DNA of 25,259 nucleotides from Paraphysomonas bandaiensis. Its lineage: Eukaryota; Protista; Chrysophyceae. Position 1 is the stretch's first letter, and every line of letters begins with the position of its first letter. The notes under the pieces are model-generated. The model had not been told where the DNA came from. It worked only from the letters and a program-made list of their open reading frames with translations, and made no database searches. The position numbers and the translations under genes were made by a program. Positions 1 through 22,790 of this stretch are shown here, in pieces. The stretch is taken from contig CBFFRP010000582.1 of the NCBI GenBank assembly GCA_965644295.1, forward strand, positions 1 through 25,259, written 5' to 3'.

Positions 1-2
1 AG

Positions 3-755
3 AATGCTTTCATTGTAAGTTTGAGCAATGAGGTCCAGAAATATTTGAGCCAGCCCATATTTCTTACCCTTAAGCTCCGGGCAATACTCTTTATTGTTCT
101 CCATCAATATTTGGAAAACCTTCGTAAAGAGATCCTTCCTCCTAAGGATACCTTGATAGAATCGCTGGTGATTCGCTGGATTAACTTTTTCCCAATTTAG
201 AGGCTTCATATAGCGAAGTGCATGCCTCATGGTATCCCCAAACTCACGCTTTGACATGACTTTGGTCTCCTTGGCCATTAGCTTCATGAAATCAGTGGGA
301 GTCATCTTGTAGAAATCTGCTTCAGACACTTCATGGTTATGCATCAGCAAACTTCGTAGTCGCTTTGACAATATCCGTGGAGGTTCTAGTTTGAGGCTGT
401 AAGTGCTCTCCCATTCCATCCACTGAATCAAGAAATTGGAGAAATCCGCTAGGTCAGTAGAGTCTAGGAATATGTGCTTGAAGTCTGGCGGTGGCATGTT
501 GATCACTACCATTCGCTTCTCTTCTGCAGCAGAAACATCTTCAAGGTCTTTCTGGAATCGTGTCTTTCTTGATTGTCTTTCTCTTGCTGAAAAATGCGAT
601 CCATCATCCCTTTCATCATCTTTATCAAGAGTGCGCTCGCCCTCCAAAATACTGAGTCTAGATTCGAGTGCGGCAGATCTATCCGCTTGTAAGTCCATTT
701 TCACAACCAAAGACTGTAAAAGAGTCTTTATAGTGTCTTCTTCGTCAATTTCCAT
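3..755 (-). CDS. Intronless ORF of >250 codons running off the left edge; putative retrotransposon Gag/capsid-like protein
   Basis: Manual translation from ATG at 755: MEIDEEDTIKTLLQSLVVKMDLQADRSAALESRLSILEGE...MPPPDFKHIFLDSTDLADFSNFLIQWMEWESTYSLKLEP...GLAQIFLDLIAQTYNESI, with no stop before the window edge (absent from the ORF track). N-terminal coiled coil then a helical-looking region. It starts 41 bp after a TG...CA unit. The ORF is directly seen; Gag identity is contextual inference. Confidence 0.55.
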   Translation of the reverse strand, partial: MEIDEEDTIKTLLQSLVVKMDLQADRSAALESRLSILEGERTLDKDDERDDGSHFSARERQSRKTRFQKDLEDVSAAEEKRMVVINMPPPDFKHIFLDSTDLADFSNFLIQWMEWESTYSLKLEPPRILSKRLRSLLMHNHEVSEADFYKMTPTDFMKLMAKETKVMSKREFGDTMRHALRYMKPLNWEKVNPANHQRFYQGILRRKDLFTKVFQILMENNKEYCPELKGKKYGLAQIFLDLIAQTYNESI

Positions 756-794
756 TGTTAACAATATTTTCCGGCTTTTAACCCAAGTAAATTT

Positions 795-1071
795 ACTGCA
801 ATGGAACTCAGGTTGGGACCTGAGAGCCAAACTCTAAATAAGCTAAAACTCGCTTTAACAGAGAGAATGCTGCTTATTATTAACCTATACTACTTCTGCA
901 GTACTGAACTGCATAGCTGGTGAGTTGTGCTTTAGTTTCTTGGGGTGCCGAGAAGCATTTAGTACTGCAGAAGTAGTATAGGTTAATAATAAGCAGCATT
1001 CTCTCTGTTAAAGCGAGTTTTAGCTTATTTAGAGTTTGGCTCTCAGGTCCCAACCTGAGTTCCATTGCAGT
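795..1071. repeat. Perfect 111-bp inverted repeat (795-905 / 961-1071) with 55-bp spacer; TG...CA core 797-1069 is a candidate 5' LTR
   Basis: ACTGCAATGGAACTCAGG...CTTCTGCAGTACT (795-905) is the exact reverse complement of AGTACTGCAGAAG...CCTGAGTTCCATTGCAGT (961-1071). Each arm contains a smaller stem-loop (CTCAGGT-CCCA-ACCTGAG in the right arm). Confidence refers to the repeat; the LTR reading is inference. Confidence 0.97.
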
Positions 1072-4000
1072 CCCATACTGCTTTATTGGCACCGCCTATG
1101 TCGCTGTCGTACGCAGCCCTGGCTTGGATTAATATCTCAAGTGGCCAGCGTTGATCACACCAGTAATGATGCCCGTAGTTGATGAGAAGTTCTTCATCCT
1201 TAGCAATGGGACGTATTGTACGGACATAGAGGCGTTTATTTTTCGTGACAAACTTGACATTAGCCATGTTTGTGGCTAGGGGGTCATTAATATACCCAGC
1301 TTCGCATGTTACACATTGTCGGACTTGGTCAAAGCCATCTATTGCGAAGGTACCAGTACTGTCTTGAACTATGTAATCAGAACGCCTTGCAGACTGACTC
1401 AGCTTTGTTAGTGGATAGCGTTTGCCTTTGTACTCAGCAATGATGACGTCTGCTGGGAATGTGTTCTTCGCATAAAGGGATAGTCCTTTGGCAGTGTTAT
1501 CGGCGTACGCAATGTAGAACTTTCTTGACCAGTCCTTGTCCCAGCTGGTGGTATCAAGTGCTGGAGTTGGTCTGATCGTTCGTGTGGTCGTGGATTGGTG
1601 TGAGTTGTGAAGGTTCGTTGGTTGGTCACTTTCATCGTAATTTACGACCTTTTTGGCTTTCCGGGTTGGCTGGCATCGACTTGTCAACGCAGTTTGGGCG
1701 TGTTTCAACTGCATCTTCTTGTGCGATGGTAGTGCTCCAGGGGTTGAAGCCTGCAGAATCTGTCGATTTGTTCGTGCTAGCTTGGTGCTGCTGGACGAGG
1801 TTGTTCTGGTGCTGGTCGTCTTTGATGTCCTATTGTTGTTCGTGATTGAGTCCGCGGGAAGTGTAGGTGGAGCGATGGGGTCAGACGTTGAGAGTATACT
1901 GGGGGCCAAGGTGTTTTCAAGAGATAGTAGGGCGTTGTCTAGGGCAGTAGAAAGACCGGCAGGGTCTAAGAGGAAGTAGTGAGCATCTTGTAGTATGACA
2001 TGGTAGTAGTTATCACGAATAGCGTTCCTAAGTTCCTCCACCTTCCATGCGATGTTATAAGCTACTTTGTCAGTAGGGATACCTACAATGCTGAGATAAT
2101 TACCATTTTGCGCCCACGTCGTGCAGGGGTTGATAGTAGAGGCTAAAAGGTGGACCTCTCGCACTGAGAGCCAGTGAGTTATGTCGTCCTCCGTAGTGTA
2201 TGTTGTTTTGGCAGGTATTAAAAGTGCGGCCTGTGCGTGATCCAACTTATGTCGTAGTGGCTGAAGTGTGTGATGGGCCATGCACTCCCGTTGCATTGTG
2301 TCGAACGCTTGGGTGCCTAATGTATTTATAAAAGATGCTAGCGTGTGACGGTCCTTGCGTTGTTTGAGGTCTAATTTCAGACAGGAGCGAGTGTGTCGCC
2401 TGCTTGAAGCAAGAATGTGCAGATGATAGAGTGTGCTGTATGCGCAGTATCCATCACTTGGGATATGTTGTTGTGTGCGAAGGGCTGAGGGTCTGAGGGT
2501 GAGGCGATAGACTCTGCTCATGTCGCACATATGGAGCCTGAGTTGTCGACGGTCCGTGGGGTTCATCTGCCGTAGTTGACGTCGAGCTCTCGGTGACAAG
2601 GAGACTGCAATTACTTCCCTCTGTTCCTGTTGCTCTCTTTGCTCATGTAGCATAGATGGTACAGTTGACGGTTCAGAAGTCCAGATGATGTTGGTGCTCT
2701 GTCTGGAGGTCTGGTGTTGTAGAAAACAGGATAGCCGCTCCTGAGTTCGTGTTAGAGCGTGCATGATGGAGGTGGGGATATTTGTTGCATTTAGTATGTG
2801 AAACCCATGCTGGCTGCGTATGATGTCATGGGTTACCACAGTGTTGGTAGAAGCGTGCACTGTTAGTGCCTGTCTGGAGAATGGTGATAGCTGTGCCCAA
2901 CCAGGCGCCAGGTGCGGTTGAACAGCGTCCCATAGTCTGTATGGTATGGAGAGAAGATCGAGTAGCAGTTGGAAATCCTCCGTGTCTAGATGTAGTCCTG
3001 TGTGTGGATTCGAGGATTCATATTGCATAAGTGTCTTACGGAGAGTGACAGTGGCTGTTGAGGGAATACCCTTTGTCAGGCAAAGGGTCCGCACATGCCT
3101 AGATACAACATGAGTGGAGTCTGCCCAGGGTTTGTTGCCATTCGCGAGATGCTGGGCAACTAGTAGGGCGCTGTGCGTGGTGTCCAATTTGTGCTCTGGT
3201 AGCGTGAATGATATCATGAGATCATAGTTGTCCGTCCTGGAAGCCTTGGCTATGAATCCTTCCCATATGTCTAAACAGGCAGGGGATAGCATGTGTGCGT
3301 ATATTTCTTTTAAAAGGTTTCCCTGTGGGGAGGCAGCAATGGTTTGGGTTTCATCATATCTAACCCAGTTGTTCAGCAGATCGGAGTGAAAGGGCGTGTG
3401 ACCCCGGCCCTCTGTGTAGTGTAGGGGGTATGTGGCAATATCCTTGGGCAGTACATCCGGCCTGAGGTCAGGAGTGGTAGTGGAGAGTGAGGATGGGCCG
3501 TCTGGGGCTAATGCTGGAGTTCCCATGGTGTTCAGTTGAGCAAGGTTGGTGGTAGGTGGCTTCCGTTTGACTGGGAAATAGTCAAATAACGTTGCATACG
3601 GTGTGGTGGCATCCTTAGTGGGTAAGGGTAATGTGTGGGTGGATTTGCTGGGTCCGTCACCGCTGTTATCGGAGGAGAATTCCTTCCCCTGAAGGGCGTG
3701 GGAGGGATGGTTGATGGACCTGGCACGGTGGACTCCTTGCATTCCCTTGGAATGACATTGCAACACATTTTGGAGACGCATGATGACAAGGTCAGGAATT
3801 CTCTCGAGTAGCGCGTGTAGTTCCAACTCCACCGGGTATTTGGTGTCCAGGAAGAAGTGATCGTTGGAGCAAAACACATCATAAGATGGAAGGAATTGAG
3901 TTTGTGGAAGGAAGGAGGAATAGTGGGTGGACCAGTACGCCCAGTAAGGGAGAGGCGATAGTTTGTCTGGGGGTTTTCTAGGAGGAGGTAGAGTGTACTG

Positions 4001-4786
4001 TGTGTGTGTATGACACTGCAGTGGTGTTATGAGTGTGTTGGACAGTGAGAGAGAGCTGGTGATGTGTCCAACAGTACAGGTAGACAGGTACATGGACATG
4101 GTGATGTGTCCAACAGTACAGGTAGACAGGTACATGGACATGGTGATGTGTCCAACAGTACAGGTAGACAGGTACATGGACATGGTGATGTGTCCAACAG
4201 CAGTAGAGGTATACACGGAATGGTATGCATCCTGTAGGACACAGTAGTACAGTAGTCGAGTATACCGTATGCGGAATACAGTGTCTATCCAATGAGATGG
4301 ATGGGCTGTGGGGGTGATAGGTGAACAGGGTGAGGGGGTAGCCTGCTGGGTGGATGGACCACAGACAAACCATGTTGGGTTGGGTTGAGTGGGCGGCAGA
4401 AGGCAGCCCTGTTGCACAGTTGAGAGGGATCGAGAGTATTCAGTGATTGCATAGGGGGTCCATGGGGGTCGTTTTCGTGAACCTGCTCGCACGAGCCATG
4501 TTCTGAGAGGTTGTAGCCGTAGAAAGCGATGGGTGAGACGAAGTTGTCTGCTGAGGGGATAGCACGTAGGTGCGGTCAGCGCTGCATTGGTGCAGGCACG
4601 TGGTTTAACTGAAGTAGTTGAGTAGGGTGAAGGTTGCAAGGCCAGGCAGGGGGGCTTGGAGCGTGTACAACATGGTGTGACAGGTAATTTGTCGGAAGCG
4701 TGGTGGTCAACAAAATGCAGCAGTAAGGGAGTGTAAAAGGCCCTGGGCACACTGATGTGACTCAGCCACAGTCTCAATAGAGACAT
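1043..4786 (-). CDS. Long intronless ORF with an OTU-like cysteine protease domain (~1960-2470) and a C-terminal SET domain (~1160-1520); true start uncertain; C-terminus runs into the inverted repeat
   Basis: SET motifs: GLSLYAKNTFPADVIIAEYKG, AIDG, EAGYINDP..ANVKF, VRTIRPIAKDEELLINYGHHYW. OTU-like motifs in the right order: IPSDGYCAYSTL (D-x-x-C), WLSVREVHLLA (W-x-x-x-x-E), ILQDAHYFLL (catalytic His loop). The first ~330 codons are low-complexity, contain a tandem repeat and may be untranslated. Confidence 0.8.
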   Translation of the reverse strand: MSLLRLWLSHISVPRAFYTPLLLHFVDHHASDKLPVTPCCTRSKPPCLALQPSPYSTTSVKPRACTNAALTAPTCYPLSRQLRLTHRFLRLQPLRTWLVRAGSRKRPPWTPYAITEYSRSLSTVQQGCLLPPTQPNPTWFVCGPSTQQATPSPCSPITPTAHPSHWIDTVFRIRYTRLLYYCVLQDAYHSVYTSTAVGHITMSMYLSTCTVGHITMSMYLSTCTVGHITMSMYLSTCTVGHITSSLSLSNTLITPLQCHTHTQYTLPPPRKPPDKLSPLPYWAYWSTHYSSFLPQTQFLPSYDVFCSNDHFFLDTKYPVELELHALLERIPDLVIMRLQNVLQCHSKGMQGVHRARSINHPSHALQGKEFSSDNSGDGPSKSTHTLPLPTKDATTPYATLFDYFPVKRKPPTTNLAQLNTMGTPALAPDGPSSLSTTTPDLRPDVLPKDIATYPLHYTEGRGHTPFHSDLLNNWVRYDETQTIAASPQGNLLKEIYAHMLSPACLDIWEGFIAKASRTDNYDLMISFTLPEHKLDTTHSALLVAQHLANGNKPWADSTHVVSRHVRTLCLTKGIPSTATVTLRKTLMQYESSNPHTGLHLDTEDFQLLLDLLSIPYRLWDAVQPHLAPGWAQLSPFSRQALTVHASTNTVVTHDIIRSQHGFHILNATNIPTSIMHALTRTQERLSCFLQHQTSRQSTNIIWTSEPSTVPSMLHEQREQQEQREVIAVSLSPRARRQLRQMNPTDRRQLRLHMCDMSRVYRLTLRPSALRTQQHIPSDGYCAYSTLYHLHILASSRRHTRSCLKLDLKQRKDRHTLASFINTLGTQAFDTMQRECMAHHTLQPLRHKLDHAQAALLIPAKTTYTTEDDITHWLSVREVHLLASTINPCTTWAQNGNYLSIVGIPTDKVAYNIAWKVEELRNAIRDNYYHVILQDAHYFLLDPAGLSTALDNALLSLENTLAPSILSTSDPIAPPTLPADSITNNNRTSKTTSTRTTSSSSTKLARTNRQILQASTPGALPSHKKMQLKHAQTALTSRCQPTRKAKKVVNYDESDQPTNLHNSHQSTTTRTIRPTPALDTTSWDKDWSRKFYIAYADNTAKGLSLYAKNTFPADVIIAEYKGKRYPLTKLSQSARRSDYIVQDSTGTFAIDGFDQVRQCVTCEAGYINDPLATNMANVKFVTKNKRLYVRTIRPIAKDEELLINYGHHYWCDQRWPLEILIQARAAYDSDIGGANKAVWDCNGTQVGT

Positions 4787-4800
4787 TGGGCTTGGAGCTG
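1072..4800 (-). mobile_element. Putative mobile-element- or virus-derived segment carrying the OTU+SET ORF (boundaries approximate)
   Basis: No introns over 3.7 kb while the neighbouring host genes are spliced. Visibly GC-richer, with strong C/A skew on the coding strand, a 5' tandem repeat and a return to AT-rich DNA near 4800-4900. No RT, transposase or TSD is visible, so this is inference. Confidence 0.5.
4057..4200. repeat. 42-bp tandem repeat, 3 identical copies plus an 18-bp partial
   Basis: TGGTGATGTGTCCAACAGTACAGGTAGACAGGTACATGGACA at 4057, 4099 and 4141; partial copy at 4183-4200. Confidence 0.97.
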
Positions 4801-7281
4801 GTTAATAGAGTGAAACTTTATGTTGGACTGTATTTGCCATCGTAGGGCAGAGAATTATCCCATAGTATGTTTGGCGTTAGGCAACTACTAATACTGCATC
4901 GCATCATATGCTATATACTATAGGAGTAACTCTGTAATACACTTGATCATTCCTTATTATTTAATCACTCCCTCTAATCAATGAAGTATAGTACGGGCAT
5001 TTGTAATCATCTAGTTCAGTGTACTGCATGGAATATATCCGAAGTTTTTGTTGCATTTTATACTCCTCAATTTGGTCTGGAAGTCCATGCTCCCATTCCT
5101 TTGTAGGAGCTCCTGTATACAAGTCGTATCAACCAAACGTATCATTTATAAGAATCAGAATAGATGCCGATAGAGTCAGAAATCGGTCAGCATAATATAT
5201 ATATGGAGCAGCAACATGGAGAAGTAACAAGTGAAACTATATAATCTCAACAGGCTAAACACCCACGTACCCATAATAATGCCAAAACCATCTTCATTCA
5301 GTATTCGGAATATCTCACGGGCTGACACTATTGGGGAGTCTACATCTCACTCGGGATGAGGAAGGGATATTATTACAAGCTAAAATTCGTGATAACTATA
5401 GAACGAAACAAAATTTAATGGTTAGTCACATGATGCAAAAATATAACTAATATTTCAACGTAACGGGACATACTTGCAGGTAAAGTAGCCAATAAATCAA
5501 CAACTTCGACAGAATCCTCATATTGAGCTGCCCCAATCCGAGAGCGTACCATGGTGAAGTGCTAGTGTTGACTACGCTAAGCAACACAGGTGTGGGACAG
5601 AACAGAATCTGGGCGTGATCTATGCTGTCAGCTACGTTGGTACACGCGGGTAGGCAGATTATAGAATCAGTGCTATATCTCGGTGTTATAGGTGGTATAC
5701 CAGCGAGTCTTCACATGGCCACGCCTCTGAATGGGGAAGATACTAATGCCTTATACTACAGGCAAGAGCAAGACAATGACATACAACGATATGACATGAT
5801 GGTTACATACGATGTGACGACTGGAAGGAACTGTTCGACGTAGAGAACAATATATATGACAACAGAATGTAACGGAAACGTCAGGACAGATATTTCATTG
5901 TTGGCGGTTGGTATATGAAGATTCCTTGCCACATTGATCCAATGCACAATGCAACTGGACTCAAGGAGGTCCACTGGACTCAAGTTTCTTTAGCCATCTA
6001 AACTGTTTCTTCTTAAGAACACTAAAGGTGCACTTGACTTCTTTCGCACTGACTCAAGAAACTCGTCCTCGATATTGTAATGAAAGCTGTTCGATGCTAT
6101 ATTGCATAATGTGCTCTTTAATAGTTTTCGAGGGCTTGTTGGATGAGTATGAGTAGATACTGATTGAACTGATGAAGATCCAGACATGCTAAAAGATGAT
6201 CTCGTCTTCGACCGTAGTTTTTATGAACGATAACCCCAGACAGTTGTAGCATTACCTGTGAACACGCAACCGCAGTAACATGCTTTCAGCTGCATGAGTT
6301 ATTGAGACTATGATCGTCTACACAAGGTCCTTGTAGCCCACTTACATTTCCAACACATTCTCGGTCAGTTGCAGTTGTCTAAGTAGCTGAGAGCATATGT
6401 GAAACAGTTTAATTCCATTAAATGAATCAGTGCATATTTCAATAAAGTACTGTCTAATGCTCTTTATGTTAAGGAAGTGGATCTTCCTGATATAATTGAT
6501 AATACTTTCAGTAATCAGGGAATTGACAATGGTTTGTTCTTCATTAATAGCATCAATTAATATTATTGTTGCCTGATCCCAAAGAGATGGTCTCTTGCCG
6601 TGGCCTGAATCCGAGCTAATATCGTCACCGACTTCGTAGCATAGTTATGTGAAGCAGATCACTACCAATCGCTTATGTTTCGACTTATTTATTATCAGTG
6701 GTTAGAACCCCATCATTTCTTCCATATAGACGATAGTTGGTACGTCTTTTAGCTCCAGACAGGATATGATCAACATTAACATGTATTAGGCAGAAGGCAC
6801 TCCCTAAGCACTTTTTTAAATGCATGGATAATAATTCTATATTCCACATGCAGGAATTCTTCTCTACTAAACTACATCAATATATCAATATCTACCCAAG
6901 CAGTGTACTATATTACATGTTACTACACCGAATGCCTTTACAATTGATAATTGATCATACAATTTACATTTAATGATGGGAATGCTGAAGAAGCACTACT
7001 GTACGTAATCTAGGCAGTGATTATGGCCAGCTACGAGGTTGCGTGCTATATATAACTTCGCAGGTACAATACCAATCAATAAATTAAAACTGAATCACAC
7101 TGATGACAAGACACACCTACGTACGACTACAACTAAATCGCTATAACTTGTATGGAAGTGTCCCAGCATTATATGAAATGACAACAAGCCACAGAAACAT
7201 AGAAATATTAACAATTTCTATCTAATGAGTTTGCACGGGCTTCTGGATATACACCACCATGGAAATCACCTTGAATACGCT

Positions 7282-7676
7282 TCACAATAAATTCTTCTCC
7301 ATGCAATTGTTGCAAAATTTCCGCAAGTCCATTAAACCATGTGTCGAACTGATCTGAACTTAGAGCCATTAAATCAACAGATCTAGTAGGAGTAATTAAT
7401 GAAAAGCACTGATTATAGACATGCCCTCCGTATTCTGCACTCTTTCTTTTAAAGTTAGTTGTGTTCTGGCCTTGCTCAAGTCTAGTAACAGTTTGGAGAT
7501 TAACTGCATAGTATTACTAAGCGATTAGACGTTTTATAATTACTCACTAATAGAATCTTCAGGTTTTTTGCATGCAAATATTGAGGATTTCCAATATAAA
7601 GTGGTATTATCTTTCGATATATGAATACGCCTCTCTTGCACACGTCCTTGACGACCAAACTTGAGAAATATATCTC
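7282..7676 (-). pseudogene. Two spliced exons encoding a PH domain (PLC/PRAF-like type); probably part of a degenerate larger gene
   Basis: Exon 7676-7548 (after tatacag): GDIFLKFGRQGRVQERRIHISKDNTTLYWKSSIFACKKPEDSI. 44-bp GTGAGT..GCAG intron. Exon from 7503: INLQTVTRLEQGQNTTNFKRKSAEYGGHVYNQCFSLITPTRSVDLMALSSDQFDTWFNGLAEILQQLHGEELL*. The FLKFGR, GQxT, FSLI, SxDL and WxxGL motifs are typical. No clean upstream start exon found. Confidence 0.7.
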
Positions 7677-8302
7677 CTGTATATAAGCAATCAGACATTT
7701 ATAAGTGTTGCACACTGTGCTTTATGATGTTGAAATATATGGGGGTTCATGAACTGTGATACTGTATCATGGATGTGTATGTACTGGCAGCAGTGTGGTA
7801 TGGGATGATATGCATGTACAGTATTTGTACCTATCAAAACTCCTGATTATCAAATTCAAAACAGAAAATCATCGATTTCATATTAAAATATTGAAATTAT
7901 GGATAAAAATCGATTTGTACCACCAAACCACCTCATCTCGATAGAAATTGAGGAAAAAACAAACAATTTTGGACTGAAATCTTGTTTTGTGGACTGAAAA
8001 GTACAACACAACAAGTACCTCTCCTCCAACATACAGCAGAGTATACCAAAGCAAAAAAATTCTGAGAATTTAATACTGTGGCTAATTTAACCAATCATAA
8101 TACATTATTTCTCTTTCTATCTAGTTCATTGGATAGATTCTATGGCTGCAATGAGCGTATGATTGAACACTATGCATATATATATATATATATGTGTGTA
8201 TATATGACTAGATTCCAGTGATAATAGTTCCATATCACTTAAATTGAGTAGAACATAATCTGAATGTGTATTTTTATTAATCTCATTTATTAGTGAAACC
8301 AA

Positions 8303-10368
8303 ATGAGTGACTCTAAATCACAGAGTGATGAAAATACATCATTCCCTTATCGTAAAATGATAGTGTTACTTACTGTCGCATTATCAAGCTCATTATGTTT
8401 AACGGGATTATTTCCTTATGTAGCCTTTATGGTGGTTGATTTACATGCTGCATCTAATGTTGATAGTGCCGGTTACATGTCTGGATACATATCGTCAGCC
8501 TTCTTATTTGGTCGAATGTTAACATCATTTTTTTGGGGTCGTGTGGCGGATACATATGGACGTTTACCAGTTCTATACTTTGGTTGTACAACTATTGTAA
8601 TAATGAGCATTGTATTTGGATTATCGGTAAATATTTGGATGGCAATTATTTCCAGGTTCCTACTTGGACTTGGCAATCCGCTTGCTGGACTGGTCAAGAC
8701 ATTGGTGTCGGAAGTATGTGGCCCGACTCACGAAAAAGCTGGAATGGCTCTGACAACGGGTATGTATATTTTTACATTAGTGCATTAAAGGAATATGTCA
8801 TGGTTATGCTGGTGTAGGTGCGTGGAGTTTAGGATTAGTTGCCGGTCCTGCCGTCGGGGGGTAAGTATTTTGCCATAATGAATGCAATGAATAGCAACAA
8901 GTCTTGTGTGAACTATGTGATATGAAGACTACACTGTGTTGGTTATTGAATGAAAAGTGTATTTATTCTCTTTTCGTACATATTTTGACAACATCACTTC
9001 TCATACCGCTACAGGCTTCTCTCAAGACCAGCTGCTCAGTACCCTGATACTTTCGGTGAGAGCTCATTTCTGAAAACTTTTCCCTACATTCTTCCTAATC
9101 TGTTCACTGCTGCTGTGGCTTTGTTGGGGATGGTTCTTATATATTTTAATCTAAGTGAGACTCTTCATAAAAAGGCGTCAGATGTAAATATAACAAACGA
9201 ATCGGTTGAATGTGATGATGTGGAAGAAAATGGAACCTCATACAACCCAATTGGAGACAAGTGCGCTCCTAATGATGATGAGGAAGGACAGTCTGACGGT
9301 ATTGAGTGTGTAGATATGCGAAAAAATAATACCGGTGATGTACAAGGTGTACGTGATGCTGATATTAAATCTAATTATTACCAGAATATTGATGACGAGC
9401 ATACAGATCGTAATATATCGAAACCGCGGTGTTGTGGAAGCATTCGTGACTTACTTTCAACCCAGAGTGTATCTGTGTTAGTTATTGCCTATTTCTCGGT
9501 TAGTTTGAGTGCTATAGTGTACGATGAGGTGATGCCTCTGTGGGCATTATCTTCAGTTCGTAGAGGAGGCCTGGGTTATGAGAGTAGAGACGTAGGTCAA
9601 GTGATGAGCATTGTTGGCATCCCGGTTGTGGTGTTCACATTCGTTGGCTATCCTTATCTTGCCAAGCAACTTGGTGAGGTCAAATGCTTTCAAGTCGGGC
9701 AGATGCTAGGGGGAGTTTTGTGCTTTTGTACTGTTCTTTTACGGCTACTTCCGCTAACCTGTGAAGAGAAAGATGGTATGGACTCCGCTAGTGATAGTTG
9801 CCGAAATAAGTGGATAATGGAAGCGCTGCTTGTTTTTATGTCTTCTTTGTGCCATATGTCGTATGTTTTGGCATTTACGTCACTATTTTTGCTCATAAAT
9901 CGCTCTGTACCGACTGATCAACGTGCCTCAGTAAATGGACTTGCTATGACCGTTGGGAGTGTTTCGAAGGCCATTGGCCCTATTGCTGGATCTATATTGT
10001 ACGCGTGGTCAATACATAATGGGCTTCGCGATGTTCCGCCTCTAAATTATATGTTTGTTTTCGCTTTGTGTCTATTGCTATCACTCGTAACATTTTTGCT
10101 CCCTATTGGAAGTCCGGTCTCGAAATCGAATTGCCCATTAGAAACAGGAAGCGCTAGTGATACTAACAGCACGGATGAAGATTTGGAACAAACTGTGGAA
10201 TCAACATCTCGCAGTACGCATTGGAGATTATTTGGTCAGAATGCAAATGTTAGTTTATTTCGCTACATGTTCGGTGACGATTATAGAAGTCGAAATGAAC
10301 ATAAAGATAGAGATACGGACAAGTTGTTAACAACTCGTAACAGATGTGATACTAGTAATACACCTTAA
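8303..10368 (+). CDS. MFS transporter, ZINC INDUCED FACILITATOR-LIKE type; exons 8303-8759, 8818-8860, 9015-10368
   Basis: MFS motif A WGRVADTYGR; AGYMSGYISSAF; spliced junction GAWSLGLVAGPAVGGLLSRPAAQYP...FPYILPN; later RGGLGY and RASVNGLAMTVGSVSKAIGP. GT-AG introns 8760-8817 and 8861-9014 keep the frame. Confidence 0.92.
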
Positions 10369-10511
10369 CTAATTCCTTTTTAAAGCTTCTTCAGTAAATA
10401 TATTACATAGAAAACAATGAGAAGTCAGACACACTCAGAACTCGGGAATACTATATTGAAATTAACATAGAAGTTATCACATTAATCAGTAATAGACAAC
10501 AGGAGAAATAC

Positions 10512-10952
10512 GAGATATATTATTCAACCTAGTCAATTTGGTTGAATTTCCTAGTCATACTATTTTCGGTGTAAAAACCTAGTCAATTATAGTATTAAAC
10601 CTAGTCGTGAATTGTACTCGCATATAGGTACGCGTTACAGGCCTATAGCTTGACATCACAGGCATATAGCTACGCATTACAGAAGCATGAGGTCATAGCA
10701 GGTGAAGTAGAACCAATGCCCAATTTTCATTCGACTGTGACGACGAAGTGTGAGGCATATAGCATTTGAATTTTTGAATTTATGGCTATAGTAGCTATGC
10801 TCCCCTTTTTGACTAGGTGAATACCCACTTCCACCTACTCAACCTAGTCATTGAAACGATAAAAATCTAATTATTTAATGACTAGGTTTTTAAACTAATA
10901 TTGGTGTGACTAGGAAATTCCACTAAATTGACTAGGTCGAAAAATAGATCCC
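10512..10952. mobile_element. Non-autonomous Mutator-like MITE (441 bp) with ~75-80-bp imperfect TIRs and a 9-bp TSD
   Basis: GAGAAATAC is duplicated at 10503-10511 and 10953-10961. Left end GAGATATATTATTCAACCTAGTCAATTTGGTTGAATTTCCTAGTCA matches the reverse complement of the right end, GGGATCTATTTTTCGACCTAGTCAATTTAGTGGAATTTCCTAGTCA. CCTAGTC is reiterated. A 9-bp TSD with long G-starting TIRs is the established MULE signature. Confidence 0.88.
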
Positions 10953-11112
10953 GAGAAATACAGAGTACGACGCGAGTCGTCGAAAGTGGATTCTACGACT
11001 AGTTATTTACTAAAAGATGGCGCTACCATCTACACAAATACTGTACAAAACAAAAAAATGCAGTGTCACCACTCATAATTCATAGTACTACACTACCTAT
11101 CAATATGAACTG

Positions 11113-14100
11113 TTACACTACCCCACTTCCGAATGCAGTTTTCTTTGACGACGACTTGGCTCTATTTCTCTCTCGTACTGACTGCTGGGGAACTTTCTGT
11201 ACATACACTTCGTGGTTAAAATCAAATAATAATCTTGTTGACGATAATTACATACACAACACAGCAGATATATTGTACACGTGAAAATATGTGTCAGTGT
11301 CAAATCACGTACCACTCCAGCACCATGGAATATGGACAAATTAGGGGTCTCCCTACGTTGCTTTGCTTGTTTTTCTACCTCGCTTACACTCAGTTCTAAC
11401 TCTTCCTCAGTGCATTCCTTAGTCTCCATTGTCTTATTCTCAACGTCTTTCTCAGTATTCGTCGGTGTTCCAGAGGTCTGACTCGGAGAATTGGCAGAAC
11501 CGTTGGGGAGTGCATTTCGAGTGGGACGGCCCCGAGCGGGGGAACCTTTGGGCGGCTGTTTCTGACCTGCAGCGGTTCCAGAATTCGCCCGAGCTACGGA
11601 CTGCACTTTAACATTAGAATCTTTTCTACTAGAAATAGGTTGCTTGGAAGGGGACACAGCTCTCTTTTTTCTTACAGGGCCAGAAGCAGATACGTTCGAC
11701 TGCATCGAATAGTTGGATTTCTGAAATTCTATTTTGTTCTCAATGTCCACAGCTTTGGATTGCCAGTACTCGAGCTGAAAAAAATGTAATTGAAAGAAAA
11801 TATAAGTTCCTAACGATTGTTCATGCTCATCGTCGGAGAATTACCTTGGAGTAAATCATCCTAGCGTCGACACGGACAGCACAATTCTCTGGTACTCGAG
11901 GCCTGGCACGGGCGTATTTCTTTGATGCAGACTCTATAATAATTACAAGTCACAGTCACTTTCTACCAAAACATGGAACAAAATGTCCACTGCAATAAAT
12001 ATCATACAGCGGTTGGTATTTCATTTTTATTGTAGAAATACAATCTCTCGTACCATGAGGGGCATGAAGTTTCAGCCAAAAGCTATGCTTCTTCTGATCC
12101 AACAGTAGTTTTAGTGGGAGTAACGAAAGGGCAATAACCTCATCCGCCCCAGTCTTCGAGGCGTTCCATAAAATTATACTCAGAACACTTCCGCTGGGAA
12201 CATCACCAGAGCGAGTTAATGGGAACATCAGAGACTTGGGCTCGTCCCTCCAGTCAGGGTATCTCTCATCCCACCTAGTCAAAGTCCTCTGGCGGCTACA
12301 AGGATAACATAGTTCAAATATGGCATACTCATTTTAAAATGACTAATAATTGCACCACACACAATACGCAGTAATACACGATACCCAGTGATTCAGCATT
12401 ACAAACCTCTCGGGGTAGTCATAGAAAGTGCCATCTCCATTTGAAAAGTCAATAGTGGCCTCCATGTAACAATCTGCTCCTGGAGCCACCTTTTTCGTCT
12501 GAAAATGGTCATATTACTTTCTCCTCTCAGAATATTGACATAATAGTTCATGTTACTTCAACAATTTTCGCATCCAATTATGTATGCCGAATCCGTAATT
12601 CTCTTACCTCTGGCATATCTCGTATATTCATGATGGTAACATCAAGGCGCCCTGGTAGAATACCACACGCTTGTAAGACATATAACAGAAAATAAAGTGT
12701 TTATACCTGTAAGCTCTACCTGTGAGGTGCTCGATAATTCTTTAATCTTCGTTTTGCACCTATGACAACATCGTTTACTACACGTACCACATACTAGAAC
12801 AGCTTATACACACTTTTTTAAATGTCCCTCCAGCTCTTTCACACTCTCCACCCTACCAACCATTCCTCTGCTGCTAATAATACTCGAAGCGTGAATTTCC
12901 TCAACCAGTTCTCGCTCATGGATACCATACTCGTGTTTTCGCTTCGGAGATGATCGGCGTCCTACAGGAGATGCCGGTTTAATATCTCCACCCGACGAGC
13001 CAAATGATGCGCCCAACTGTACAGATTGCAGATCTTCGGCGTTGAGACTCTGTCCCCTAGAGTTACTAGTGTAGCGATACTTGAACTTCTTGTTATCTGT
13101 ATCACGTCCACGGGTCAGTAAGTGGTCAGTCTTCATAAAGTAGCTCCCATCTCGCTCAGTCACGGGACTACTTTTACGGCGTCCGCGAGTGGTACGTGAG
13201 CCGTCTGCATGTGGAGACCTCTGACGCTCGTATCGTACGTCATCGTTACTAGACCCAGATATATTAAACACGCTACTCTGATCATCATCGTCGTGGTCAC
13301 GACTTTTACTTCGATGTCTTGAAGATGAGCGCCGTCTTTCGTGTGAGTGCCTGTTGAACACATACATATCAAAAACATAAACAACATGCAGATGGGGTAT
13401 GACATGGAATAATGCCAGGTATACGGTATACATACCTCTCTGGAGATCGACTATGGCTTCTGCTGCGACCTCTTCGTTCCTCACTGAGCTTCAACACATC
13501 TTTAGACTTTTCCACCAAATGAGAGGCGATGTCACTGACATCCTTCCATGGTGAAGAGTCCACAGATACGATACTATCTTCCCGCCTCCTTGTAGGGCTG
13601 AGCGATGCTGAGTGTTTATAGGAGCGAATACCGGTTGGAGGTGGTCCGCTAGACGGAAGAGCTCCTGCAGCAGACTTACTGCGGACTACTTTGCGTGACT
13701 GCTGCTGACCATCAATTACACTGTGGTCGTGAGAGTGATGGTGTGAATGGCCCTGAGAATGAGGGCGAACTGACTTTGAATTGCTTCTTGCCATCTGGAT
13801 AGCAGTGGGGTCGGAGCTTCGTCTGGATATAGGCGATGGGCTACGACTATTGATTCTACTACATATGGCACAATGGGCATGCCGAGACGCCTCTACAGCC
13901 TCACTGTTAGTAGCGGGATAGTTGTACTTGTTGTCCTTCCCTTGTACGTGATGACTAGTATTTGTCCCTCCACCAATCCATTTACTGGCACTACGTGTTG
14001 GAGACACTGACTGACTGCGATGTGGGGTGTGTTCTGGAGTACTATGATGAGATATAGGAGAGGCGTGCTGAACACCATGATAAAATCCATACATGACATC

Positions 14101-17100
14101 ATTATCGCATTTCGGTTCCTCTTTTATTCTATTCTTCTCAGATATAGAGCGAATTTCTTCTAGTTCCTGCTGTTGTTCACGAAGTAAGAAGACTAAATCA
14201 TCATACCCTACCGCCTCTCCGTCGTCAGATTCACTACTACCAACAGAAGAACTGCAAGAGCTGTCCACATCACAGTCTTTTAAAAGCATACTAAGCAATT
14301 CACTGATGACAGCTTCTTGGCGTTTCATTTTCACTTCGATTTTATTGCTACCAAGTAAGTCGGCGCCAAACTCTTTAACTACTGCACTATCAGCCACCTG
14401 ATTCAGTCGTACTGATATTTCTTCCACAGACTTAAATCTACCATTTTTTCCAAATAAAATGCCTTTCTTCTTACGCCCCCGATCTTTTTTCTGTTTCGTT
14501 TGCGTCGTATCAGCACCACTATCCGCAATGGAATTAGATGGCTTTCGAATCAAATGACCATCTCTGGTATACAACTCTGGCGTACTACATCTCGATATTG
14601 CTGGAGGCAATGCCGGCTTTGTCGGACCTCCATCCTTACTATCAATAGGCCTTGAATCCCCTTGGTTGTCTACATCTGCAACTGTCTCAGCTGGGAGAAT
14701 AGATTCGCTTTTTAAAGGATCGACTCGACATAACGTGGAGTCAATAAGAGTGTTGATACTATCATCTACGTGATGTGACTGGATTTCATCACTACTACTT
14801 CCTTCGTCTTCCACTAGTACTTCACACCCATCTTTCTCTTTACTTTCGAATTCGTTCTGTCCTTCATCGTCACTCTTTTCTCCATATTCAGCTTTCAGAA
14901 GATTAACTGCGACCTTGATCATATCCCTTGCCCCACTCCGCACATCAGATGAAGCATTCGGCTTAGAGTCGACTTCAGTATAATGACTGTCAGAATCCAT
15001 ACGCATAGGGCTGATGATCCAATTTTTGCGCGCAGTTGAACCACCCTCTCCAACAAGATTCTTTTTAGCTGTGTCTTGCAGCTCCGCAATATCGAAAGGC
15101 TTGTCTCCGTTATCCATACTATGATTCACTTGATGCCTCTCTGGAAAAGCAGCAGATACCGAAAATCTGCTATCTGAATAGTGATTATTGTGATCTTTCC
15201 GGGTTCGTTCTTGAAAGTGTATGTCCATATTTTGAGATGGCTGGAGACGTCTACGTGATTCATAAGGGTCTTCTACTAATGGATGCACACTAGGACAGTC
15301 ATCAGATGTATGGTATTGTGATGAAGTAGCTGCCCGACGCTGCTGGAGAATCGTGCAGATATTTGCTACTCGAAGCTCCAACCGCAGGCGCTTGACCTCA
15401 CATTCACGAAGCTACACCAAACCGTCAATAATTCAATTTTAAAAAACAACGCATGCACACATCAACACACTAGCTAGCACCTCGTAAACAAAGGCTGATT
15501 GATGCATACAACATATCGTGCATCAAAGACATATAACTTTCAGAGCAGTAGATTACCTGATCTAAAGCATTTTTCACTTCAGCTGCCTTGGCATCCACTT
15601 CCTCCTGAAGCTGAGCACACAGGAGCAACAAAGCATTAAGCCTTTTCTGTAGTCTAGCCCGGTACACTCCGGCAGATTCCCCTGTCATACGCGTAATTCT
15701 AGCCTTTCCCGCCAAAACTTCTTCCAGAGTAAAGTCGCATGTGTAAGGACGAGGTGCGGAAGTAGCTGTTGCGCGGGCTACAGCCAAATCTAAAACACCC
15801 AGTACATGAGTATGAACATTTAATATGTGTTTGCAATATTGGAGAATTTTTAACTGGTATTCTTAACAACAAATACAACTACTAGAATACCTTGATTTTC
15901 TGCCTTGGGTTCACTTTGTGGAAACGCCGAGGTGTGAGTCCCGTCTGGGTTCTTAAAGGATGAGAATAATGAAACTGCATTGGATTCGCCCTGTATAAAA
16001 ACACATTTATTACATTCGCACTTATTAATGAGAAAAATGTATGGCCCGTAATTGACAAGTACTAAACTGCCATTACACAGTCTTCGGTAGACATGTACTA
16101 TACACATCGAGCCCAGCCATTGCATGCTATATGATATATACTAGAATAGTGTAACAATACGAACCTTCACTTTTGTGAAGTGGGACAAATTCAGGGCATC
16201 CTGGAAGGCCAGTCCATCCTTTCCACCAATAAGTTTCAAGGATTCAGATACTTCGTTCTCCATATTAAGTAGCTGTTGTCGCAAAGATACGTATTCAGAC
16301 TCTGCCTGCTCCAGTGTATGGGAGTTGTTTATCAAATTCATTCGCAATTTGGTTGACATTTCAATCGCATTAGGAACTTTATCTAACAGCTGTATGCACA
16401 AGATCATAACAAAAAACATCACGTATGTACAATGTAGGGAATACATATAACTCAATTGGATAGATTGAGAACATAACTATCTTTCTAGCATATAGACAAT
16501 AGTAAAGTACAGAGCACACAACTTCAAAAAGACAGATCTCAGTTTCCATTGGCATGATATACAAGAAGAGGAGCTACTTCACACATACAAGAAGGAATAG
16601 AACCTCACCTGCGAAGACTCCATTAATACCGATGAGGCCTTCCGAATATCTTCTCGCAGCACATCTAGTCTTTTTTCATGCTCCTCTATTTTCACTCGAA
16701 GGGCATCTCTCACTCGCACCTGTGGGTAACGCAATACAATTCGTTAGTGGATGTTAAAGTTTTAGTTTTCCCATGTAGGTTCAAGTTACACACATATAAC
16801 ACATATATATGTTCCTAACTTCATATGTCCGACGAACTTGTGTGAAACTAACCTTCTCTCTAAGAACTTGGATATGAATCTGCTGGCTTAGATCTATATT
16901 CTCACCGCTGCTACTGTCCACTGTACCATTCAAGCCCTCATGTCCACCATTACTACCTCCATCAACTAAAGTACCATATGCCCCCCCTTTAGTGGTTTGG
17001 ACAGAGAAATTAGAGTGCTGTTGTCCAACATCTTTAGGAGAATCGCGGCTGTTTGGTTTCCAATGATATGCTTGATCATGTATTTCCTCAATTGTGGTCT

Positions 17101-17642
17101 CTTCAATGGCAGCCCGGAAATTAGCTATATGCTTACGCAGACTAACCAGCTTGTCCCACGTATCCTGTAGATCTTGACAGCGCTGCCGATGGTGGGCTTT
17201 TAAGGAAGCTTCAGTTTTGCATATAGTGCCCAATTCTCTTTGCAGTGAAGCCACTTCGGCATCCGACGAGGATGCCTTCGACAGACCTCCTATATCATGT
17301 GCCATCGAAATAAGACGACGCAAATTCATCTCAGCACTAGATTCAAAACTGGTACTATTTTCTCCAAAGCCTTGAGAGCGTCCAAAATCTTTAAGTTTCA
17401 ACTCTTGCAACTCTTGCTCCGATATACTCAATGCAGAAGCAAGTCGTGTGAAATTTTGGCTCGTGCTCTCAAGAAGATGAGATTTAACCTGAATACGGCA
17501 ATAATAGTGAATACTACGTATAATATCGATGAGTATACTGTGAGCATACCTTTAATTCCCTCGATATGTCGTGTTCCTTATCATCATTACGATACGCTAC
17601 CATCTGATTGGATGTATGCCTCATTGAATGACTTCTCGACAT
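11113..17642 (-). CDS. Large multi-exon protein: N-terminal coiled coils, long Ser/His/Arg-rich disordered region, C2 domain near the C-terminus (3' end approximate)
   Basis: Exon 1 17642-17550 (MSRSHSMRHT...RELK) splices in frame to exon 17488-16853. Further co-oriented exon ORFs lie at ~16.2-16.4, 15.9, 15.6-15.8, 13.4-15.4 and 12.8-13.35 kb. C2-like pieces RLDVTIMNIRDMP / ADCYMEATID / PDWRDEPKSLMFPL..LSIILWNASKTGADEVIALSLLPLKLLLDQKKHSFWLKL / VRVDARMIYSK lie at ~12660-11845. Not all exon boundaries were verified. Confidence 0.75.
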
Positions 17643-18613
17643 TGAATTCATACTCTAAATATAGTAATATGTGTATGAAAGTATAGATAAGCCAGCTATT
17701 GGGTCAAACGGTGTGTGTGTATTAATAAACTAGAGATATCTGCTAATAGATGAACTATAAACAAATCCACGTCTATCCATACATCCATAGAGACATCACA
17801 GGTGATAGGACTGGTATAGACCAATGAGTGTGTTTGTATTACACCTGTAATCACTATGATGCAATCTAGTATTGCTTTATAATAATAAGAGGGTTATATT
17901 ATGACACATACATATATATATATATAGACATACTAATATATCAAACTGTAAATACTGTGTACCTGTGTACCGCTATACTATATCCACAGTATATATGTAC
18001 AGCAATATATAGGAACATTTACAGCAGTATATACTTGTATACCTATAGTGCTGTACATGTATAGGAGTACATTACACCATTTTTTGTTGTGAATTTTTTA
18101 TACATTTTAGAGTTTTATGCCACTTTTTTACTGAAAACACTAATTTTAGTACCTAGAAATATCTGGCAATATGGAGCAGATGTTTCGCCATCATGAACAC
18201 TGTTATCGGCACACAGATACAGAGATAAGCAGAATTTGAAATCATATCCACGTTCTATCAAACAATGGAGTACATACTTGTCAGTATCATCTATCCAGAT
18301 ATCACTGCATGATTTAATACTGTGTCGCATGAATACTAAAACGTCTAGAACACAAAACATACAAAAAAAATAAAAAGGACAATTTTCTCTTTTTACTATG
18401 AAAATAATATGATTACTTCGTACAATACAATTTTACATACCAGGAAATATTTTTATAAAAGCAAATTTACAATTTTGTCCTGGATGCATATATAAGTACA
18501 TATATATCTACATATATATGTATACACATAATCCACTCTATAACAACACTCCTAAGCTGTATATTCCATTACCACCTTTATATCCTTACACCAACTAATA
18601 TCCTTTATTCAAC

Positions 18614-19689
18614 ATGGGTAAAAAGGTTCCTAATACAGTATTACTTGATCATTCTACTGTTAAACCTACACTATTAAGTTATATAGTTGTATGGAGTGGA
18701 TTAGGATGGTTTATAACTGTACCATGTGTTATTGCTGCATTTCCATTCTTATGGACACATTTTAAACCATTAGTATGTGCAGTAGGAGGATCTATGTTAT
18801 TATCTGCTATATATACCGTTGATCGTTCATCTCAACCTGAATGGGGGTTTGCATTAGGCAGATGGATTATGAAAAATTGTTGCGCTTATTTTAGTTTTAA
18901 AATTGAATTTGAGGATGTGGAAGCAGTACAGAAAGCTGGACCTGCTTTGTTTGCTATTGAACCTCATGGTGTTTTACCGATCAGTATTTACTGGGGGAGT
19001 TTGAATATCCTATCGCGTCACAAGTTCTTGTGTTGCTTATCCTCATCCATGCTTATCATGCCAATGATGAAACATATTCTGACATGGACAGGGGCTATCA
19101 GTGCAGATAAGGCTACGATGGTGAAGTACATTCGACAGGGGTTCAGTTTGAATATCTGTCCTGGTAAGAATTATGTCTATAACAATGTATGTCGTATGTC
19201 AGTGTGCCTGTAAAAGTGTATGTTATCATTTTTTCTCGATATCTGTAACGTTACACGTGCGTAGGTGGAGTACAGGAAGTAGCATACCTTGGAAATCCTA
19301 AAGAATGCGTACTCTTCCTGAGAAAGCGCTTCGGGATAATAAAAATGGCAATGGAAGAAGGTATTCCCCTGATACCAAGCATGACGTTTGGGCTTCACAA
19401 AGCCTATGATTTTTGGGTACCTTCGAGTGACTTTGCTGTTCGATTGGGTCGGCGAATAGGATTTCTTCCAATGATTTTCTTCGGACTTGGGGGAGTTCCG
19501 TTTGCTCAAGCAAAGCCTTGTCCACTTTCTGTTGTGGTTGGGAAGCCAATTATGTTGCCACATAAAAGTACTCCAACGACTGAAGAAATCGCTAAATATC
19601 ACGCCATATTCATAGACGAAATGGTTCGACTGTACGAAGAAAATAAAGTGGCGCATGGAATGGCTGATATCACGCTTCGTATTGAATAG
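18614..19689 (+). CDS. DGAT2: DGAT2/MOGAT-family acyltransferase; exons 18614-19163 and 19265-19689
   Basis: Motifs AYFS (YFP block), EPHGVLP, spliced CPGGVQE, RKRFGIIKMAMEEGIPLIPSMTFG, VVVGKPI and AKYHAIFIDEMVRLYEENK. GTAAG..GTAG intron 19164-19264. Confidence 0.92.
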
Positions 19690-20201
19690 AGCGTGAGTTG
19701 TGTTGTATGTGATTTAATTGCTGTATGTGTGCTCCAATAAATTTAATATTGTTGTAGCATTTGACTTAATTTCACTTATGCTTCTAGATTATAATAATTC
19801 ACTTAGTTTTATTGAACATATTCGCGAACGTAGTGTGAGCCTTGTGGTCGCACTGTTGCAAAATGATTTTCGGTACTTGAATTCGATACGAAGCAATGAA
19901 TGGAATAGAAGTGCGTTTTGATTAATGATTAACAACCCGGAGTGCATCTAAACAATGGTAAGATACAGCTACAGGGCAACAGCTAACGACAAAATGAACG
20001 TACAAGCTCTGTTTATCTTACTGGTGTGTTTCAAGTCCGTACGGTATACGGCAAAAACTCGGCTAGAGCAAAATATGAATATAACCCCGGCGTACTAAAT
20101 AATTAGCACAAAGTACCATACTAATTTACTGTGAACGGCAATTGTCGTTGCATAGAGTCACTTCTAATTCACCGAAATGGTACTGCGCGAAGCAGTGACG
20201 T

Positions 20202-21391
20202 TTACGTGAGGTCGACATCATCGGCACTGGAGATGTGTCTCTTTATCTGTAACATATACAACAATTACGACAGCCACAGAGCATGTATGCAAACGTGAAA
20301 AACACCACATTAGAACAAAAACAAACCACGATAACAAAACGCGATCCGCACGCACCTTAACCAGCATGCTTGTCTTCCATGGGTCTAAGGGAGTAATACG
20401 ATCGAAATCAGCACAAGCCTCAGAAAAGTCATCAGCATTGTAGGCGTCTGCAGCCTGGGCACAACAACATGAGAGCAGTTATTGCATGAACTAAACTATC
20501 TCCCTGCTACGCGCGTTTATAAATGTATGTGTATCGTCACCAAGCACGCATGAATAATACATTTGCAGGAGTGTCATTACAAATTAGATATGTAACCTGA
20601 TATCCATGTACACCTACCGCCACTAGCTTCTCTAGGAACTGGCATTCTCTAGATGAGGGAAAGTTGTAATCGGTCGCTTTAAAGCTCTCTAGTTTACCGG
20701 TGGCAGCTACATTATCTCCAGCTGCCATATGGCACAAGACAGACTGGAAAAAATAGCCTTTGGCAGAGTACGCTCCCAGCTTACTCTCAAGAGACTCATG
20801 ACCCAGAGACTCGAAAATATCGGCAGCTTTGGTAAAGTCATCTTCCTGGGAGCAGAGAGTTGCCACCTTGAGACGACACTGCCCAGCAGCAGATTTTTTG
20901 TTATCAGCTTCATTTACATCAGCCGCCTGTGGGAGAAAACAATTATATTAATGAAAAAGTTGATAGAATGTTAAAACACACACCTTTTCATAGTACTCCA
21001 TCGCTTCAGAAAAGGCTCTTTCCTTCTCCAACAACTCAGCTATTTCCTTATAATATCTCGCCATAGGACTAAGACGATTATTTTCTCTGTATATTTCAAT
21101 AGCTTGTAAATATGGTTCAATAGCTGCACGTGGATTGGATGATTTCGCATAACATCCACCTGCTTCTACATATGAATTACATGAATCATTAGGAGAATCT
21201 GTTTCTTTTTGACATTCTGCTGCACGAATAAACATATCTCCTGCATCCACCCAGTCCTTAGACATCTTATAGGCATTACCCGCCTTCACATAATTAGCAC
21301 TGGCGTCTTCATACTTAGCTTGTTTACCGAACCCAAATATAGTGGTTCTTTTAAGGGCTTTTTCAGCCTCTGCTTTAAATTTATCTCCCAT
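20202..21391 (-). CDS. SEC17: Alpha-soluble NSF attachment protein (alpha-SNAP/Sec17), 4 exons
   Basis: AEKALK..FG..KYEDAS..YVKAGNAYKMSKDW; AADIFESLG...LGAYSAKGYFFQSVLCHM; FPSSRECQFL; third exon DFDRITPLDPWKTSMLVK; last exon IKRHISSADDVDLT* with the conserved C-terminal DL. Confidence 0.95.
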
Positions 21392-22571: not shown

Positions 22572-22632
<61 letters not shown>

Positions 22633-22650
22633 TGTATGTATGTATGTATG

Positions 22651-22681
<31 letters not shown>

Positions 22682-22790
22682 GTATGTATGTATGTATGTA
22701 TGTATGTATGTATGTATGTATGTATGTATGTATGTATGTATGTATGTATGTATGTATGTATGTATGTATGTATGTATGTATGTATGTATG
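21473..22790. repeat. (ATGT)n/(TACA)n tetranucleotide microsatellite, ~1.3 kb (~330 units)
   Basis: Near-perfect array with five visible interruptions (about 21881, 22303, 22500, 22601, 22681). Confidence 0.99.

Follow-up and report, generated by a model that had tools for sequence, protein, structure and literature searches.

The stretch of Paraphysomonas bandaiensis DNA analyzed here (contig CBFFRP010000582.1, positions 1 to 25,259; hereafter, the window, 25,259 nucleotides in total) carries, near its left end, a high-copy repeat (1070..4857, minus strand), probably the 5' portion of a single-open reading frame (ORF) non-LTR (long terminal repeat) retrotransposon, that is, a long interspersed nuclear element (LINE). 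The element starts at about 4856-4857 and is broken at 1070. Most of its length is occupied by a long ORF (1043..4786, minus strand) encoding the 1247-residue protein P0001 from a Met at 4786; the stop-free frame, 4801..1043, spans 1252 codons stop to stop. An earlier note, based on the DNA letters, had placed this ORF at 1043-3800, which is too short by the length of the region between 3800 and 4801. When the bases were shuffled 200 times, the longest stop-free stretch of this frame averaged 111 amino acids (aa) and never exceeded 222 aa, so that the observed frame is far longer than expected by chance. Also as noted earlier, this DNA is intronless, GC-richer and strand-skewed: the GC content of the ORF is 0.50 versus 0.40 in window positions 5901-21000, the coding strand contains 0.32 C and 0.18 G, and the nearby host genes for MFS, DGAT and SNAP are interrupted, that is, found in several pieces. 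A 12-codon upstream ORF, read by hand (4802..4840, minus strand), lies in the frame of the main ORF near the 5' end of the element and stops 15 bases before the ATG. Within P0001, a conserved motif of the S-D-[DN]-S-G-D-G-P type (3650..3676, minus strand), located near the N-terminus of the relatives, is shared with the P0002 cluster, P0093, P0146 and P0147, and takes the form SDGGP in P0055 and P0075. The linker between the two predicted enzymatic domains described below (aa 961-1075; 1562..1906, minus strand) consists of 18% Thr, 14% Ser, 10% Pro and 7% Lys; it is thus rich in Thr and Ser, as previously described, with Pro rather than Lys as the third prominent residue.

The element stands out from the surrounding DNA by its depth in sequencing runs, given here as summed contig depth, which is not a copy number. 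In run X1, the depth is 20,500-62,900 over 802-4806 versus 33-60 over 5875-8000; in run X3, it is 2,455-16,436 over the element versus 35-38 in the unique flank. The element is thus covered at tens to hundreds of times the depth of the flank; on a plain reading, these depths correspond to tens to hundreds of element copies. Contigs of six runs end at 4849-4859, with A-runs behind 4857 in X3 and X16; the element has a sharp 5' end at about 4857, preceded by T-tracts at other insertions. The depth and the sharp edge bear out the initial view of a selfish, multi-copy element. The first 0.9 kb of the element form an exchangeable 5' module (3946..4857, minus strand): contigs of seven runs (X1, X3, X5, X6, X9, X15 and X16) diverge at 3945/3946, such that other copies join the 5' module to another body, or this body to another 5' part, a swapping of 5' ends between repeat families. 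The module includes a 42-bp x3.4 tandem repeat (4057-4200) and has no stops in the coding frame, compared with 4-5 in the other minus frames. By our own estimate, about one quarter of the variants would be synonymous under neutrality. Among the 30 listed, best-supported variants that distinguish the copies, 14 are synonymous and none introduces a stop, so that this selected list gives a hint of purifying selection on the element copies.

The C-terminal part of P0001 contains a minimal SET domain (aa 1101-1205; 1172..1486, minus strand), with Tyr1204 in the catalytic position. The Pfam model PF00856 is matched from end to end (E 4.1e-9), its 37.2 bits lying above the curated threshold of 22.4, and the only other Pfam match in P0001 is the related PR model. 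No pre- or post-SET Cys clusters are visible in the P0001 sequence, in agreement with the compact domain originally proposed. The domain weakly matches KMT2C/D and the vSET protein of the chlorovirus PBCV-1 (E ~0.005) and resembles chlorovirus vSET in being minimal and devoid of zinc clusters. The SET domain is followed by a family-specific helical extension (YW..RW..IL..A..AY..W; 1070..1171, minus strand), which is conserved in the relatives that combine SET with an APE endonuclease and is cut at its end in the window.

Upstream of the linker, P0001 contains a predicted cysteine protease domain (aa 760-962; 1901..2509, minus strand) that very probably has the OTU fold, judging by a confident structural model. 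The predicted catalytic residues are Cys781 (2444-2446) and His936 (1979-1981), with Trp872 between them, within the motifs D778-G-Y-C781, W872..E877 (W-x4-E) and H936-Y937; the motif series described initially is thus present in P0001. Among the relatives, the Asp of D-x-x-C is not conserved. In a 10-row alignment (A4; 14-44% identity to the window domain), 7 of the 8 rows covering the Cys position have kept this residue, and 9 of all 10 have kept the His. A single-sequence prediction reached a predicted local distance difference test score (pLDDT) of only 31; the AlphaFold2 model built from A4 reached 81.4 (predicted template modeling score 0.82). In this model, C781 (model residue 22) opens a helix (22-35) and H936 (residue 177) opens a strand (177-181). 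Comparison with 48,161 representative chains using VIA-align placed OTU proteins in all of ranks 1-14 (Z 5.7-7.3, root-mean-square deviation (rmsd) 3.4-4.3, 124-148 residues aligned); these include nairovirus vOTUs, OTUB1, SnOTU, FAM105A, OTUD1/2 and Otu2. The best match (Z 7.3, rmsd 3.6, 136 residues aligned) covers model range 1-186, that is, the whole domain, whereas the non-OTU matches cover merely 47-81 residues, helices only. Among the PDB matches listed by Foldseek, 33 of 36 are OTU proteins, and the viral structure matches lean to OTU as well. Compared with nairovirus vOTU, OTUB1 and OTUD1-3, the window domain has the same predicted fold and Cys/His arrangement but only 6-15% identity, and additional helices separate the Cys motif from the Trp motif in its model. 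In the Atlas, a comparison of features leads to OTU clusters (0.86-0.91), largely from Nucleocytoviricota, which we regard only as a lead. Although sequence profiles do not identify it as OTU, the domain forms a conserved family: a profile built from 13 slices of the domain detected the non-seed protein P0084 at E 2.7e-21; a profile search for further OTU-like domains of 84-384 aa found P0003 alone. Weak phmmer matches to a lectin repeat and to a MINDY-like pseudo-deubiquitinase were discarded, being absent from the 50 VIA-align and 36 Foldseek matches.

Part of the region preceding this domain, which initially appeared unrecognizable as a whole, can also be assigned. Three relatives of P0001 (P0002, P0146 and P0147) each contain two Cys/His boxes, and a profile of second domains alone gives the first domains of the relatives E-values between 1.5e-9 and 4e-4, compared with 0.12 for the best shuffle. 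With BLAST (E 8e-10), residues ~520-690 of P0001 (2717..3229, minus strand) align to the first of these two domains in P0002, although they lack both the Cys box and the His box and do not rise above their own shuffles with the second-domain profile. Because the profile match is missing, the assignment is transitive, via P0002; by this sequence-based route, the region appears to be a decayed tandem copy of the OTU-like domain. Further toward the N-terminus lie the SGDGP-type motif and the exchangeable 5' module described above.

The probable nature of the element is indicated by its relatives, which are 28-39% identical to P0001 and are single-ORF LINEs of ~2,800 aa with the order OTU, OTU, SET, APE endonuclease, reverse transcriptase (RT), RNase H-like region and Cys knuckle. 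In P0002, which is 39% identical to P0001 over 520 aa (OTU-linker-SET), the shared region is followed by the APE endonuclease (PF03372). P0146 (2805 aa) and P0147 (2831 aa) each come from one complete ORF that encodes SET, APE and RT; their RNase H-like region and Cys knuckle after the RT were read by eye, with no Pfam RNase H match, and their best PDB match is human L1 ORF2p (E 1e-10). Altogether, APE and a LINE-type RT were found in P0002, P0146, P0147, P0150 and the DNA contig L005, and are absent from the broken copy in the window. L005 (1-7310) encodes OTU-OTU-SET-APE-RT in this order through the RT active site, with a few frameshifts. This contig, which has a second SGDGP-like motif in an upstream frame, is filed in a bacterial metagenome-assembled genome (MAG), and its protein P0148 is named bacterial in NCBI; L005 is probably eukaryotic repeat DNA contaminating that MAG. 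The succession of SET and APE recurs in 8 distinct clusters among 155 proteins; 4 of these clusters are not profile seeds. In a FastTree phylogeny of 144 SET domains, from which near-identical cluster members (P0148-P0155) and matches shorter than 95 residues were left out, P0001 groups with P0002 (support 93) within a 36-row group (91) that includes all 9 SET-APE rows. Because the relatives carry APE, RT and the RNase H-like region after SET, the element is assigned to LINEs, not to Helitrons or viruses, and we consider its identity as an OTU- and SET-encoding LINE very well supported. The suggestion that the replication enzymes would be found beyond the interruption holds for the intact relatives, where they follow in the same ORF. 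In environmental data, a JGI metagenome scan with the window protein confirmed none of 31 candidates, a scan with an alignment confirmed 1 of 25, a giant-virus-like contig with a stand-alone SET gene (L001), and the IMG/VR search confirmed 3 of 37, all giant-virus contigs with no LINE genes among the ORFs listed.

Several observations weigh against this reading or parts of it. The APE-RT link was not seen in the own family of P0001, for which 30 letters past 1070 are visible. The OTU domain was not detected by Pfam (PF02338) in the ORF or in the 10 aligned domains, so that, of the two domains originally proposed for a Pfam check, only SET passes it; neither phmmer nor a profile detected OTU among PDB sequences. 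None of the Foldseek matches reaches E<=0.001 and no VIA-align Z reaches 8, below which a match may reflect just a common arrangement; the OTU case therefore rests on the consistency and coverage of the matches. At the Asp position of D-x-x-C, 3 of 8 rows have D and the others N, T, R or G, and the second residue past the catalytic His is aromatic instead of Asp or Asn. P0001 and P0004 each have a decayed first OTU copy, and neither the Cys nor the His is present in P0014; thus the OTU domain can be lost. The cofactor motifs of the P0001 SET domain are non-canonical, with G-L-S for GxG and IND (N-D) for INH; across the SET family, this position varies between N-D and N-E, and GxG is retained in most relatives. 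One-base deletions inside the ORF are listed in X1, so that many copies may be dead. Finally, contigs from poly-A metatranscriptomes (X15 and X16, one sample) cover much of the element, which is no proof of transcription.

At position 1070, the LINE gives way to a second repeated element, as the earlier note had suspected from the end of the frame: after the residues AVWD, an inverted-repeat arm of this element, foreign to the LINE, supplies P0001 residues 1240-1247 and the stop codon. The 114-bp inverted repeat (795..1071; arms 795-908 and 958-1071, 99% identical) marks the LINE break. To its left lies an open-ended ORF of 277 codons (1..833, minus strand; X1 depth 2,370-10,320), which looks gag-like by eye only. 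Neither this ORF nor the inverted repeat has a match in Pfam, PDB or IMG/VR, and Rfam yields nothing but miRNA-hairpin matches below threshold, which arise from the inverted repeat, with no ribozyme at the 5' end. In a metagenomic contig of X6 (contig 27), positions 586-794 lead into 900-1071 in reverse complement and from there into other sequence; the window therefore holds a fold-back of the 5' part of the second element. The fold-back occurs at a 9-bp microhomology, and the subfamilies of this element diverge at 586. On the LINE side, contigs of X1, X5 and X6 leave the window before 1070. In the 30 letters beyond this point, read by hand, the frame stays open and retains the W-x-x-L-L spacing of the relatives; contig 28 of X6 extends 1,136 letters further. 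Identical 7-base sequences flank the LINE fragment, at 4858-4864 outside the 5' end and at 1071-1077 at the break, as a target-site duplication would, which makes an insertion that was already 3'-truncated possible. Internal priming that gives rise to a truncated insertion is a pathway known from L1. Two origins would account for the break: insertion of the second element into the LINE, or internal priming of the LINE copy and its insertion in truncated form. Among the contigs listed, none bridges the 1070 junction or an empty site, and the junction may also be an assembly chimera.

The closest published counterpart is Dualen-1_GCr from the cryptophyte Geminigera cryophila, which, in the accessible part of its description, comprises SET, a C48 peptidase, APE, RT, RNase H, CCHC and a restriction-like endonuclease (RLE) (PMC5029228). 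Like the intact relatives of the LINE in the window, this element, from a marine microbial eukaryote, has a single giant ORF in which SET and a ubiquitin-like cysteine protease precede APE, RT, RNase H and CCHC. By contrast, Dualen-1_GCr is listed with SET followed by C48/Ulp1, instead of tandem OTU-fold domains followed by SET, and is 5,287 aa long versus ~2,800 aa in the relatives of the window LINE (PMC5029228, same part). The Dualen/RandI elements of Chlamydomonas encode an N-terminal Josephin protease proposed to disrupt protein degradation (PMC8557442), and the definition of Dualen is confirmed in PMC9977147; the passages available from these two sources describe single-ORF LINEs in which a deubiquitinase-type protease at the N-terminus precedes APE, RT and RNase H, in this respect like the relatives described here, but with Josephin instead of OTU, with an RLE, and with no mention of SET. 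NeSL/Utopia LINEs likewise have an N-terminal ubiquitin-like isopeptidase (Ulp1) fused to the LINE ORF but are of the RLE type and target-specific, without APE, and SET is not reported for them in the part of PMC4640811 at hand. OTU or SET domains borne by transposons and read as counter-silencing tools appear in Helentrons and proto-Helentron (PMC4067079) and, for SET, in HarbingerS and MuDR of Phytophthora (PMC12730594); as far as the excerpts of these papers go, these are DNA transposons with OTU and SET in separate ORFs or elements and with no RT fusion.

In layout, P0146 and P0147 match Dualen/RandI: in a single ORF, a cysteine protease at the N-terminus is combined with APE, RT, an RNase H-like region and CCHC. 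A motif search for PD-x(8-18)-[DE]-x-K after the knuckle found no RLE in the two full-length relatives, although a degenerate RLE could escape such a search, and R2 matched the relatives in the RT only. Judging by layout, the element in the window appears to be a single-ORF LINE resembling Dualen, in which SET is joined to tandem OTU-fold domains; no RLE was recognized in its full-length relatives. The earlier impression that the tandem architecture is new for a transposon was overstated: because Dualen-1_GCr has both domains ahead of APE and RT, the combination of SET with a ubiquitin-like protease (Ulp1/C48) in a LINE is already in print, to judge from the available text of PMC5029228. The novelty is accordingly partial: an OTU domain in that slot is apparently new, a third protease fold in the same LINE slot, here fused to SET. 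Full-text literature searches showed no description of an OTU domain in a LINE; Repbase Reports and some supplements of PMC5029228, which were not covered, could hold one. Single-ORF LINEs of algae and protists thus repeatedly carry a ubiquitin-like protease, and some add SET, as the parts seen of PMC8557442, PMC4640811 and PMC5029228 indicate; no assay of either domain is reported there.

On balance, we favor, with moderate confidence, a LINE whose predicted enzymes remove ubiquitin and add lysine methylation in the favor of the element; that both enzymes are active appears slightly more probable still. LINE proteins bind their own RNA and insert by target-primed reverse transcription. The full-length element would be transcribed and translated as one protein of ~2,800-3,000 aa, and this polyprotein would bind its own RNA and integrate in the same manner; being parts of one polyprotein at integration, OTU and SET would thereby both reach each insertion site. 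The OTU domain may strip ubiquitin either from the polyprotein or its ribonucleoprotein, which would spare it degradation, or from histones in the vicinity; the SET domain may methylate a histone or a host factor at the new insertion. Because Josephin, Ulp1/C48 and OTU convergently fill the same N-terminal slot of single-ORF LINEs, we lean, again with moderate confidence, toward counter-defense, not self-cleavage, as the main role of the OTU domain. A broader scenario is tentative: a ubiquitin eraser and a lysine-methyl writer on the integration protein of a marine-protist LINE would rewrite histone marks at the insertion site, LINEs would have recruited three unrelated isopeptidase folds (Josephin, Ulp1 and OTU) for this purpose, and the protease-SET module would move between the N- and C-termini of different families. 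Given that these are small soluble domains with named catalytic residues, the question whether retrotransposons edit host ubiquitin and histone marks is directly testable, and the family would supply divergent OTU and SET enzymes, the former of a kind that escapes current profiles.

The most serious competing explanation, which we nevertheless consider rather improbable, is that the OTU domain serves mainly in self-processing, cleaving the single polyprotein into its functional parts, with SET as a separate passenger. Some RNA-virus OTU-like proteases process their own polyproteins in this way. The single, very long ORF without a separate ORF1 would fit such a role; the conserved SGDGP-type motif that precedes the OTU domains could serve as a cleavage site, and LRGG directly precedes the SET module in P0055, P0066 and P0075. 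However, there is no L-x-G-G at the domain borders of P0001, P0002, P0146 or P0147, the sole GG of P0001 (aa 1231) is absent from P0002, and LRGG or LKGG occurs in just 4 of 143 matches. Moreover, OTU and SET are also found in the reverse order and at C-termini, which disfavors a fixed processing scheme. Less probable again is that one or both domains are catalytically dead, that is, ubiquitin or histone binders or decaying passengers. The losses of catalytic residues in P0001, P0004 and P0014, the non-canonical third catalytic residue of the OTU domain and the altered GxG and NH motifs of SET all point in this direction; yet the Cys and His persist in nearly all rows of A4 despite the low identity, the SET Tyr is almost invariant among the relatives, and N-D is found also in the stand-alone SET of L001. 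That the locus is not a LINE at all but a gene of the host, an insert from a giant virus or the cargo of a Helitron/Helentron is largely refuted and very improbable: Helentrons carry OTU ORFs and a proto-Helentron a SET ORF (PMC4067079, in part), related stand-alone SET genes lie on giant-virus contigs, and the nearest Atlas OTU clusters are largely from Nucleocytoviricota, but the element has a high-copy depth and a sharp 5' end, its closest relatives run straight into APE-RT in the same ORF, and no Rep-helicase or viral gene was found among the Pfam-scanned relatives sharing the OTU-SET region.

The SET family occurs in several other arrangements. SET, in some cases preceded by an OTU-like domain, lies close to the C-terminal end of ORFs whose last residues are G-[IV]-G in P0013, P0019, P0022, P0023, P0029, P0033, P0037, P0056 and P0095, with SET following the RNase H-like region in P0022; the protease/SET module thus seems to occur also at the 3' end of LINE ORFs. 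The order SET then OTU is found in P0055, P0084 and, partly, P0075. A Ulp1/C48 or related CE-clan protease is fused to the same SET family in P0063, P0065, P0066 and P0145, the first three with Pfam matches to C48 (Ulp1). LRGG-type motifs upstream of SET, possible self-cleavage sites, are present in P0055, P0066, P0075 and P0138. Two proteins represent SET in LTR retrotransposons: SET is fused C-terminally to an RNase H that looks Copia-like by eye in P0048 and to a Gypsy-type pol (Pfam RT, RNase H and integrase zinc finger) in P0113.

DNA of the window occurs in marine metagenomes. Elsewhere in the window, a short separate high-copy repeat (5514-5774; depth 500-2,400 in X1 and X3) has no tRNA or Rfam match. 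An element resembling a miniature inverted-repeat transposable element spans 10511-10953, with 75-bp terminal inverted repeats that are 83% complementary. The SNAP gene region includes a 1.3-kb (ATGT)n array (21473-22790), and the right end of the window is occupied by an ORF for a Copia RT (23094-25148; PF07727).

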